Virus record (IMG/VR): IMGVR_UViG_3300033068_000427 | Location: 1 to 64,000 of that record | Direction: 5' to 3' (one strand) | Source: a virus | Lineage: Duplodnaviria; Caudoviricetes | Length of the DNA: 64,000 bases | In this document: positions 8,971-10,588 of the stretch, piece by piece | Layout of the letters: every line of letters starts with the position of its first letter | How positions within the stretch are numbered: the stretch's first letter is position 1 | Translations under genes and position numbers: made by a program | Notes under the pieces: model-generated | What the model was told of the DNA's origin: nothing | Database searches by the model: none | The model's input: only the letters and a program-made list of their open reading frames with translations

Positions 8971-9006
8971 CATTCCCGGCAGGAGTTGAACCTGCAACCA
9001 ATAGCT
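8971..9006 (-). pseudogene. 3' half of split tRNA-Arg(UCU)
   Basis: AGCTATTGGTT-GCAGG-TTCAACT-CCTGC-CGGGAAT-G; acceptor strand CGGGAAT pairs with GTTCCCG at 9610-9616. Confidence 0.8.
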
Positions 9007-9010
9007 ACTA

Positions 9011-9469
9011 TCAAACTTTCGGTTTCCACCCTGCAACAGTACACGCATCTCTATACGCATCGGTATTAAATATGCGTGTCACAGGGTCAGTATACTTTAT
9101 GAGAGTGTTCTGATGGATTCCTGTTGCTTTACTTGCTTGGCGGATACCCAAAAAAGTTTGATCGTTTATTTTCCAACACAAACTTTTAGAGATATGTACA
9201 GCTCTATGTACTTCCTCTGAGTCATTCCAGTTATCTTGTTGGGAACCTGGAGCAAGATGCTGAGGATTGCAGCATCGAGTGTTGTGGCATAAGTGCCTGA
9301 TAACAGCCCCGTCAGGTATCGGCCCGTTGACCGTGTGGTATACGTACCTGTGTGTCAGCCAGTATTTTCTGTTTACTGTGATTTGACCGTATCCAGCGCT
9401 ATTTACACTTCTCTGCCATACCCAACACCCATTAGCATCCTCAGCAACACTCTTTAAAATCTTATCCAT
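9011..9469 (-). CDS. Free-standing HNH (His-Cys box/HNH_4-like) endonuclease
   Basis: CWVWQ...GYGQI...THRYVY...IRHLCHNTRCCNPQHL; ATG 9469 after RBS TAGGAG (the longer ORF-track start overlaps the tRNA). Confidence 0.9.
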   Translation of the reverse strand: MDKILKSVAEDANGCWVWQRSVNSAGYGQITVNRKYWLTHRYVYHTVNGPIPDGAVIRHLCHNTRCCNPQHLAPGSQQDNWNDSEEVHRAVHISKSLCWKINDQTFLGIRQASKATGIHQNTLIKYTDPVTRIFNTDAYRDACTVAGWKPKV

Positions 9470-9481
9470 AAAATCTCCTAG

Positions 9482-9565
9482 TGGAACCCCGTGGAGGAAT
9501 CGAACCTCGTACCGTCCATCCCACGTTAAGGATCGGTTTAGAAGACCGATGTGGGGGCACGGGGC
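9482..9565 (-). tRNA. Atypical D-arm-less tRNA-like RNA, anticodon UCU (Arg)
   Basis: Acceptor GCCCCGT/ACGGGGT-T-CCA; T-arm GAGG-TTCGATT-CCTC; anticodon hairpin ATCGGT-CTTCTAA-ACCGAT stacked in CCCAC/GTGGG; no canonical D-arm. Confidence 0.7.
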
Positions 9566-9580
9566 AGTATACACTATTAC

Positions 9581-9616
9581 TAGAGGTACTGCTCTATCCA
9601 GTTGAGCTACGGGAAC
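9581..9616 (-). pseudogene. 5' half of split tRNA-Arg(UCU)
   Basis: GTTCCCG-TA-GCTC-AACTGGATA-GAGC-A-GTACC-TCTA then non-tRNA sequence. Confidence 0.8.
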
Positions 9617-9619
9617 ATT

Positions 9620-9659
9620 TGGTGCCGATTGCCTCGATTTGAACGGGCGACCTGTGCTT
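9620..9659 (-). pseudogene. 3' half of split tRNA-Thr(UGU)
   Basis: AAGCACAGGTC-GCCCG-TTCAAAT-CG(A)GGC-AATCGGC-A-CCA; acceptor pairs with GCCGGTT at 10582-10588. Confidence 0.8.
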
Positions 9660-9662
9660 TAT

Positions 9663-10376
9663 TTAATAAGACTTACCTTGTTTGTATCTAAGTCTTCTGT
9701 AGTATCTACCATTTCCTGCATTCTTACCCTTATATGTTGGCGTTTGTGAGTGGCAGTTTGGACATATTAAACAAACATTTTCAGGAGAAGAATCTTGACT
9801 ATCTCCATTTATGTGTTCAACCTCTAAAACTATATCCTTACCATTCCACTCAAATATGCCACAAACAGAGCATGAGTATCCGTGTAAAATTGTTAAGAAA
9901 TTCTTGAGAACCGAGTTCTGAAACTTTTTAGAGGAGCAGTACCAATCTAAAAAGTTATTTTGCAATCTATAGTCTGAGGAACACTTGTGAGAACAAAACT
10001 TCTTTGTAGAATTGCGTGTAGGATAAAACTCTTTACCACAATTTAGACAAGATGAAAGATCACTTACTTTTCTAGGTTTTGTGACTTTATTGTTTATCGC
10101 AGCAGAGCAACTTCTTGAACAGAAATCGTTCACCTTTTTCTTGTAAGGAATTGCAGAGTTACAACAATTGCACCTCTTTGGGTTTTCATAGTAAGCTTTT
10201 TGCGCAAATTCAGAGTTTAACTTGTTGAGTCGCAACCCTTTCCTCATGCAAGTGTTATAACTTGGTAGATCAGAGTGGTTATCTAGGTCTGCCTTAGTTA
10301 TAGGTGCCTGCTTTACTTGGAAAATTTCCCAGAGGATGGACGTGATTGTGTCCAGATCAATATCTGTCTTTTTCAT
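9663..10376 (-). CDS. Free-standing HNH endonuclease with zinc-finger repeats
   Basis: CxxC/FCSxxC repeats and LEVEHINGD...NVCLICPNCHSQT; RBS TAGGAG. Confidence 0.9.
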   Translation of the reverse strand: MKKTDIDLDTITSILWEIFQVKQAPITKADLDNHSDLPSYNTCMRKGLRLNKLNSEFAQKAYYENPKRCNCCNSAIPYKKKVNDFCSRSCSAAINNKVTKPRKVSDLSSCLNCGKEFYPTRNSTKKFCSHKCSSDYRLQNNFLDWYCSSKKFQNSVLKNFLTILHGYSCSVCGIFEWNGKDIVLEVEHINGDSQDSSPENVCLICPNCHSQTPTYKGKNAGNGRYYRRLRYKQGKSY

Positions 10377-10457
10377 TTTGATCTCCTAATAGATCAGGTG
10401 TGAGTGCAGCTAGCCGTGATTAGGCACGGCAGGGGAGCTACCCTTTTCGCTGTTTAT

Positions 10458-10532
10458 TGGAGGCTAAGCAGGGAATCCAACCCTGGTCACGGCTTTACAA
10501 AGGCCGGGTAATAAGCACTATACGACAAAGCC
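10458..10532 (-). tRNA. tRNA with anticodon UGU (Thr), non-canonical
   Basis: 75-nt cloverleaf ending CCA; anticodon arm CGGC-C-TTTGTAA-A-GCCG; T-loop TTGGATT; two U-U mismatches in the acceptor stem. Confidence 0.7.
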
Positions 10533-10550
10533 GGTGTTTTCTGATTAAAC

Positions 10551-10588
10551 TACAAGGTCAACTGCTCTACCAACTGAGCTAAACCGGC
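10551..10588 (-). pseudogene. 5' half of split tRNA-Thr(UGU)
   Basis: GCCGGTT-TA-GCTC-AGTTGGTA-GAGC-A-GTTGAC-CT-TGT-A then non-tRNA sequence. Confidence 0.82.

Follow-up and report, generated by a model that had tools for sequence, protein, structure and literature searches.

Two tandem cassettes of an HNH endonuclease gene and a same-anticodon tRNA gene nested in split tRNA genes of an uncultured phage

Introduction

Homing endonucleases that reside in conserved genes are thought to hide in self-splicing introns or inteins or to lie between genes. The subject of this study is a tRNA locus of an uncultured virus (Duplodnaviria; Caudoviricetes), where two HNH endonuclease genes, each accompanied by a tRNA gene, are found inside the split halves of two other tRNA genes. 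The window, that is, the whole stretch of DNA analyzed, comprises 64,000 nucleotides (nt; positions 1 to 64,000) of the 77.7-kb IMG/VR record IMGVR_UViG_3300033068_000427, which is 81% complete, and the locus occupies its positions 8,971 to 10,588. Loci used for comparison are designated by L numbers.

The closest systems described are the free-standing endonucleases of phage tRNA clusters, such as SegB of T4 and T6 (PMC13096335), together with an intronless homing scheme (PMC3984707, Figure 5c). Like SegB, whose homologues are statistically linked to tRNA genes, the nuclease genes of the window are free of introns and inteins, lie among phage tRNA genes, and should be copied with their flanks into nuclease-free alleles that their enzymes have cut. 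Unlike SegB, a GIY-YIG enzyme encoded between genes, the HNH enzymes of the window are encoded inside a tRNA gene, which is thereby destroyed, and are associated with a second tRNA of the same anticodon. In collaborative homing, a free-standing endonuclease targets the insertion site of a neighbouring group I intron devoid of an open reading frame (ORF), as exemplified by cyanophage psbA with F-CphI and T4 mobE with I-TevIII (PMC3984707, PMC6083498, PMC2790892). There, as presumed here, the resident allele is protected by its interrupted target, and one of the compared loci, L078, has exactly that layout; the window, however, contains no ribozyme restoring the gene, and function would be supplied by a separate replacement gene within the insert. 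Another relevant case is I-Ssp6803I, cited in PMC3984707 as the homing endonuclease of a group I intron in the anticodon loop of a bacterial tRNA-fMet. Such anticodon-loop introns share with the locus the same target region and the same selfish logic, but the window shows neither an intron core nor a tRNA-restoring splice junction, and its nucleases belong to other families.

Integrative elements that use tRNA genes as insertion sites bring with them a duplicate of the 3' part they displace. They resemble the present locus in that a tRNA gene is the landing site and its function is restored by the element; they differ in that here an integrase is missing, the tRNA end is not directly repeated, the tRNA supplied is whole and unrelated, and the old gene is retained as its two halves. 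In synthetic cleave and rescue gene drives, a nuclease destroys an essential or useful gene and is linked to a recoded, cleavage-proof rescue. The linkage of nuclease and rescue is the same in the window, where it is natural, occurs in a phage and would rescue an RNA gene. A full-text literature search did not uncover any account of a tRNA gene split by a nuclease cassette that also provides the replacement.

Results

Anatomy of the two nested units

All features of the locus lie on the minus strand and are given in window coordinates. A doubled, back-to-back architecture had been described in an earlier note on this DNA, and every listed part of it was found. Within a single span from promoter to terminator (10689-8905), two consecutive units have the same order: the 5' half of an outer tRNA, a short spacer, an inner tRNA, the motif TAGGAGAT, an HNH gene and the outer 3' half.

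In unit 1, the outer 5' half (10551..10588) contains the acceptor strand, the D arm and the 5' anticodon-stem strand up to the loop. It is followed by a spacer of 18 nt that begins with GT (10533..10550), of which only a TAGTTT-like portion is common with L074, and by an inner tRNA-Thr(UGU) with encoded CCA (10458..10532; Rfam RF00005, 40 bits against a cut-off of 29). A second spacer of 69 nt, carrying a hairpin (10389..10457; core 10407-10454 nearly identical in L074), leads to the HNH1 gene (9663..10376; 237 amino acids), whose Shine-Dalgarno sequence TAGGAGAT is located at 10381-10388. The outer 3' half (9620..9657) comprises the variable loop, a T arm with one bulged A, the acceptor strand, an A and CCA. 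Unit 2 starts with a tRNA-Arg 5' half (9581..9616; acceptor strand and D arm with A20) and continues through a 15-nt spacer read from the sequence (9566..9580) to an inner tRNA-Arg(UCU) of rewired architecture (9482..9565; 84 nt). The HNH2 gene (9011..9469; 152 amino acids; HNH_3, a His-Me finger), with its Shine-Dalgarno TAGGAGAT at 9473-9480, precedes the outer tRNA-Arg 3' half (8971..9005), composed of the 3' anticodon-stem strand, the variable loop, the T arm, the acceptor strand and a G. The parts of the unit 2 halves that are orthologous to the relative L002 are 9592-9616 and 8971-9000. The first spacers, 18 and 15 nt long, have the lengths previously given.

The separated outer acceptor strands were expected to pair still, and they do so at 7/7 positions in both units (GCCGGTT/AATCGGC and GTTCCCG/CGGGAAT). 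Two further statements of the note hold in part. A break right after the anticodon and A37 applies to unit 1, if two bases separate its D and anticodon stems as in the ARAGORN fold, but not to unit 2, where TCT is out of anticodon register. Similarly, the 3' halves match their 5' partners by the acceptors, whereas the halves of unit 1 have no matching anticodon stem and its T stem is bulged.

Default ARAGORN called no tRNA on the window; its intron mode with low thresholds was needed to draw tRNAs at the locus. No other tRNA-like genes besides those of the two units were found in the whole record. The HNH genes are the sole ORFs within the inserts, where neither an integrase ORF nor a duplicated tRNA 3' end is present. 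Models of group I and group II introns gave no match in 8500-11000 even at E=10, and RF00028 is absent from the locus, though four group I introns elsewhere in the window score 58-70 bits. The motif TAGGAGAT stands 4 nt ahead of each HNH ATG and occurs just 3 times in 64 kb.

A direct repeat of 5 nt, TAGTA, brackets the unit 2 insert (9001-9010 and 9577-9583), and TAGT is also seen after the break in unit 1 and in L042. The repeat could be microhomology, a target-site remnant or chance.

An intact allele of the second site

The alleles were compared with one close relative, L002, which is 86-92% identical to the window across the locus, 81-96% over all aligned blocks and 89-97% in the neighbouring genes. 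Since L002 aligns to both outer tRNAs while skipping both inserts, a chance origin of the architecture is excluded; the alignment also covers the promoter and the downstream gene. At site 2, the tRNA-Arg(UCU) gene of L002 is contiguous. It scores 66 bits in Rfam, is recognized by ARAGORN as well and shares acceptor, D-stem and T-stem bases with the unit 2 halves, and the Arg(UCU) identity of the unit 2 outer gene is taken from it. The homology ends at window position 9592 and resumes at 9000, 591 nt (9001-9591) replacing the 19-nt anticodon arm of L002. Since a deletion from the window state cannot recreate this 19-nt arm, the intact gene is older and the insertion is derived. The unit 2 insert, inner tRNA and HNH2 together, is therefore a single indel within the anticodon arm. 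Its flanking anticodon-stem strands (GTACC/GCTAT) pair at 4/5 positions and are wholly unlike the stem of L002; such foreign flank stems would fit co-conversion from a foreign donor allele.

The situation at site 1 is different, and the prediction of an empty site therefore stands for site 2, with its contiguous tRNA-Arg(UCU), but not for site 1, where L002 shows only a deletion scar. Here, 912 nt of the window (10566-9655) are absent, leaving a stub without an anticodon arm and with a CAG microhomology at the join; the homology of the unit 1 5' half extends up to 10567.

A search with a pattern of the junction between the two outer tRNAs matched the L002 contig only, and when 19 kb of the window were compared by megablast with the phages in GenBank, nothing matched. 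Scanning metagenomes with a neighbouring 189-amino-acid protein yielded two short loci, neither with the tRNA locus. The more distant relative L003, with 11 tRNAs at the homologous place, none of them Thr(UGU) or Arg(UCU), is uninformative. The proteins of the window share about 44% identity with their counterparts in marine Vibrio phages.

Two other differences distinguish the alleles. A DNA methyltransferase gene (10985-11785, minus strand) is absent in L002, which has about 30 nt instead, and a 66-nt insert with a long hairpin (L002:4200-4265), absent from the window, lies between the promoter and the first tRNA stub of L002.

The inner tRNA-Arg belongs to a rewired family

Both inner tRNAs had been taken for complete tRNAs with the anticodon of the disrupted gene. 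For unit 2 this must be amended, since the inner tRNA-Arg is nonstandard: it lacks a D hairpin, and its best Rfam match is tRNA-Sec, at 28.5 bits against a cut-off of 47. It is instead a member of a family of rewired tRNA-Arg, whose fold has an acceptor of 8 base pairs (bp) and a 5-bp helix around a 6-bp anticodon arm, together with a GGA tract, a T stem of 4 bp, a loop of the sequence CTTCTAA or CTCCTAA and an encoded CCA. The window copy meets all these features, with CCCAC/GTGGG as the enclosing helix, and its minimum-energy fold reproduces the family design. The GGA tract could stand in for G18, G19 and A20.

A pattern scan of IMG/VR found 55 loci with 49 distinct sequences, all with an Arg anticodon. 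In an alignment of 43 sequences (the window copy and 42 others), 98.2% of the cells are paired, and in 14 pairs both partners have changed. Covariation is scored at 0.653, compared with 0.17 in shuffles (0/500 reach it) and at most 0.12 with the partners slid. An extra 3-bp pseudoknot helix is kept in 36 of the 49 sequences. Collectively, these data indicate that the inner tRNA-Arg is very probably a working, non-canonical tRNA-Arg.

In T4-like Acinetobacter phages, BLAST revealed unannotated matches of 78-86% that directly follow tRNA-Thr in the tRNA clusters. Further matches came from Salicola phage SCTP-2 and, as a tandem pair with CCU and UCU, from Aeromonas phage AhSzw-1, among others. 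None of the family copies given to ARAGORN (UCU/CCU; window, L004-L008, L016-L070) was called by it, and the GenBank copies in AM101, Maestro, SCTP-2, AhSzw-1 and HSd1 have no tRNA annotation. A full-text literature search found no description of this rewired tRNA-Arg.

Recurrence of the nested design in unrelated phages

The search for a half tRNA, a full tRNA, a nuclease gene and a second half, proposed earlier, showed that the design recurs in unrelated phages. The rewired tRNA-Arg is preceded by an orphan canonical 5' half in L025, L033 (and L036), L037, L042, L045, L053 and L070. A 3' end with an acceptor matching this half is found in L042, L070, L045 and L033, and the 5' half only in L053, L037 and L025, the L037 contig ending first. 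Both flanks are readable in four cases (L152, L070, L042 and the window), and in each the insert is placed between retained anticodon-stem strands. The cleanest is L152, which came from the search for the HNH1 family: its outer anticodon stem is complementary at 5/5 and its acceptor at 7/7 positions, and the insert in the loop consists of a canonical tRNA-Arg(UCU) and an HNH1-family gene.

The associated nucleases vary. A different endonuclease, PHROG 15137, is encoded in L033, L037 and L042, an HNH1-family gene in L059 and another homing endonuclease in L038, and L045 has both halves and no nuclease. At least three families of nuclease are represented in the nested loci, namely HNH_3, PHROG 15137 and that of HNH1. 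A PDB sequence search with the L042 nuclease gave no match.

The inner tRNA follows the disrupted one, as had been anticipated. The outer halves match tRNA-Arg best in 5/8 of the Arg cases, with Arg accounting for 8/179 reference tRNAs, and most of them also carry the Arg-type A20. Arg tRNAs lie in Arg-type outer genes in the window, L070, L053, L037, L045 and L152; Thr tRNAs lie beside Thr-type halves in L071 and L112, and L074 has a Thr cassette with an outer 3' half.

Two of the loci have additional tRNA-like pieces. In L033 (7675-7757), the end of the nuclease ORF overlaps the 5' part and anticodon arm of a tRNA-Trp(CCA)-like sequence, fused to the split outer 3' end. In L025 (3631-3733), a tRNA (Rfam 49 bits) with a hairpin insertion of about 30 nt in the anticodon loop adjoins the rewired tRNA-Arg with its orphan 5' half.

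The HNH1 family and tRNA-Thr(UGU)

The surroundings of HNH1 relatives were counted in the 80 best family members. A tRNA lies within 300 nt of the nuclease gene in 74 of the 80 loci. In 42, a tRNA-Thr(UGU) is directly beside it on the same strand, either upstream (23) or abutting the stop codon (19). This isoacceptor is the nearest tRNA in 31 loci (42% of loci), compared with its 11% share of the tRNAs present there. Other subgroups of the family adjoin Gly(GCC), Arg(UCU) or Val(UAC).

An orphan Thr-type 5' half is followed by the HNH gene and a complete divergent tRNA-Thr in L071, and by a tRNA-Thr and the HNH gene in L112. In L078, a group I intron (62 bits) resides in the anticodon loop of tRNA-Thr(UGU), and the HNH gene follows the tRNA. 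The D arm of the unit 1 outer gene is that of the orphan halves in L071, L078 and L112. The HNH1 family thus shows three ways to keep decoding beside an interrupted target: an intron, a rebuilt downstream tRNA and a nested replacement.

Genes for transfer-messenger RNA, some of them permuted, were observed close to clusters of tRNA and nuclease genes (L018:56-415, L076:929-1279, L119:2010-2410 and L152:2161-2550).

The nucleases and the unit 1 cassette

The assignment of HNH1 and HNH2 to different families was confirmed (BLASTP between them, E=2.1; distinct Pfam and PHROG families). HNH1 matches PHROG HNH families at 1e-21, contains the EH...N...H motif and has full-length homologues in L074 (64% identical) and L071 (52%). 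HNH2 matches HNH_3 at 45 bits and NUMOD1 weakly, below the Pfam cut-off. Three homologues of HNH2 keep the His-Me catalytic motif over the full length, and those of L053 (53%) and L070 (47%), also full length, are encoded directly after rewired tRNA-Arg genes. More distant HNH_3 relatives (L010-L015) have no tRNA nearby, the tRNA link being limited to the close subfamily. Each of the two uninterrupted ORFs has its own ribosome-binding site. The codon AGA makes up 7/11 and 4/9 of the Arg codons in the HNH genes, compared with 13% in phage genes; since the HNH genes are AGA-rich, the Arg cassette may also aid the translation of its own nuclease.

The inner tRNA-Thr is atypical in that its acceptor includes two U.U pairs and the pair closing the loop is weak. 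This unusual tRNA-Thr recurs, together with the spacer, upstream of the HNH1 homologue in L074, at 87% DNA identity; the copy there retains both U.U pairs and shows compensatory double changes in three base pairs, at 4-69 and in the T stem. In L074, an outer 3' half with a perfect T arm lies after the nuclease gene. Conservation is most pronounced in a 48-nt stretch of the spacer (10407-10454; L074:1425-1472), where one 1-nt indel and one substitution separate the two copies while the HNH proteins are 64% identical. This stretch, which folds into a nested hairpin, might act as an operator or a terminator or be a site of processing. No match was obtained with a pattern for the inner tRNA-Thr, and that for the spacer core matched the L074 contig only; the unit 1 cassette is thus known from two contigs.

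Transcription signals and genomic surroundings

The tRNA operon is preceded by a sigma-70-type promoter (10662..10689; TTGACA, 16 nt, TG-TAGAAT; 11/12 matches with an extended -10), located 73 nt upstream of the first outer half and conserved in L002. At the operon end, a terminator-like hairpin with a T tract (8905..8931) was read from the sequence; it is under the threshold of the terminator scan, and in L002 it forms a stem of 6 bp without a mismatch. An archaeal virus with a bulge-helix-bulge intron was considered and rejected, given the bacterial promoter and Shine-Dalgarno sequences and relatives that are phages of Proteobacteria.

The genome is unusually rich in selfish elements. The four group I introns of the window are located at 1732-2036, 3041-3267 and 3575-3839 on the minus strand and at 55805-56146 on the plus strand; three of them interrupt the region of the large terminase gene, and the fourth is found among genes for ribonucleotide reductase. 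Additional HNH genes occur at 930-1694, 13434-14612 and 16866-17996.

Discussion

We consider it moderately probable that the two units are free-standing homing endonuclease cassettes which target the anticodon regions of tRNA genes and carry a rescue tRNA. The view of the earlier note that they are mobile units is supported by the empty site, by the recurrence of the design and by the association of HNH1 with tRNA-Thr(UGU), including the L078 intron. It builds on the observed anatomy, on the gain or loss of a single unit, on the link between nuclease family and isoacceptor, and on the conservation of the inner tRNAs and the intact ORFs. Cleavage and its specificity, the immunity of the inner genes, their aminoacylation and function as tRNAs and the processing of the RNA are inferred from sequence.

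In the proposed mechanism, the nuclease would cut the DNA of an uninterrupted canonical tRNA-Thr(UGU) or tRNA-Arg(UCU) gene near the anticodon arm. Repair would then copy the cassette from the occupied allele, the conserved tRNA halves acting as homology arms, and the resident tRNA gene would be destroyed by the insertion. Decoding would be assumed by the cassette tRNA, which has the same anticodon but a divergent sequence and architecture and would not contain the long recognition site. Its immunity is plausible because the inner genes share little with the outer ones beyond the 7-nt loop and the T arm. The whole array would be transcribed from the old tRNA promoter, and processing by RNase P and RNase Z would free the inner tRNAs and the nuclease mRNAs.

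Several observations weigh against this interpretation. The loss at site 1 in L002 is imprecise, with no tRNA-Thr left, and an intact site 1 allele was not found among the relatives compared. Since L002 has lost tRNA-Thr without replacement, the spare tRNA is dispensable at least there, and the payment for the disruption by a replacement tRNA, as suggested earlier, is not obligatory. In addition, AGA constitutes only 13% of the Arg codons of the phage, and the inner tRNA-Thr folds poorly on energy alone (z = -0.34). Many rewired tRNA-Arg genes are found without halves and without a nuclease. Subtypes of the rewired tRNA-Arg combine with different nuclease families from locus to locus, which makes the cassette modular rather than one co-inherited unit. 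Finally, mosaic tRNA fragments at some loci, such as the Trp-like piece in L033, point to messy recombination.

The latter fragments would be explained if the nucleases had simply landed by tRNA genes and the halves were by-products of break repair, ectopic recombination or duplication, with neither selection for a replacement nor specific targeting. The one-sided halves of L053 and L025, the nuclease-free pair of halves in L045, the unreplaced loss of tRNA-Thr in L002 and the documented rearrangements of tRNA regions driven by SegB (PMC13096335) agree with such an origin. However, in 4/4 readable cases from unrelated genomes the insert falls in the anticodon loop between retained stem strands, and the inner and outer tRNAs, though the same isoacceptor, have almost no sequence in common that could drive ectopic recombination. 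Moreover, the preference of the HNH1 family for Thr(UGU) (42% versus an 11% share) and the L078 intron at the same site speak against this origin; recombination debris thus seems an unlikely, if still arguable, explanation. Less likely again is a fossil state, in which cassettes of homing origin have become inactive or domesticated nuclease genes in a vertically inherited array. It may apply above all to unit 1, whose outer gene is decayed, with a bulged T stem and an unmatched anticodon stem, and whose split predates the divergence of the window and L002. On the other hand, neither ORF is truncated, their catalytic motifs are conserved and their ribosome-binding sites strong, and site 2 is polymorphic between genomes that are about 90% identical.

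The good preservation of the acceptor strands, D arms and T arms of the halves might also reflect repair at the RNA level, the outer halves being rejoined after transcription or annealed as a split tRNA, so that the resident tRNAs are functional. The intron mode of ARAGORN indeed draws a tRNA across unit 2, and L078 has a group I intron at this site. But no group I or II intron was detected at the locus, joins of the unit 2 halves give UCU in 5/400 only (the commonest call being AGT with a C.C mismatch), and in unit 1 nothing in the 3' half pairs with the 5' anticodon-stem strand. Neither RtcB nor a splicing endonuclease (EndA) turned up in the record, complete to 81%; a search for T4 Rnl1 was uninformative, its model having matched no control genome either. 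Taken together, these data make RNA-level repair highly improbable.

Returning to the homing cassettes, a bolder extension can be offered as speculation that we ourselves hold rather doubtful. The units might be natural cleave-and-rescue drives for RNA genes, in which the nuclease reads the DNA of the D arm and anticodon arm and odd rescue tRNAs are favoured for being devoid of the site, tRNA genes serving as universal landing pads between unrelated phages. The homing cassettes as such would represent a third solution for homing, in which the gene is destroyed and a replacement that the nuclease should not recognize is brought along, here twice in tandem. They would account for the occurrence of orphan tRNA halves in the tRNA clusters of phages. 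Because a widespread phage tRNA-Arg escapes standard tRNA finders, inventories of phage tRNAs are under-counted. Furthermore, the HNH1 family links free-standing endonucleases, intron-protected targets as in L078 and replacement cassettes, which could constitute a testable evolutionary series.

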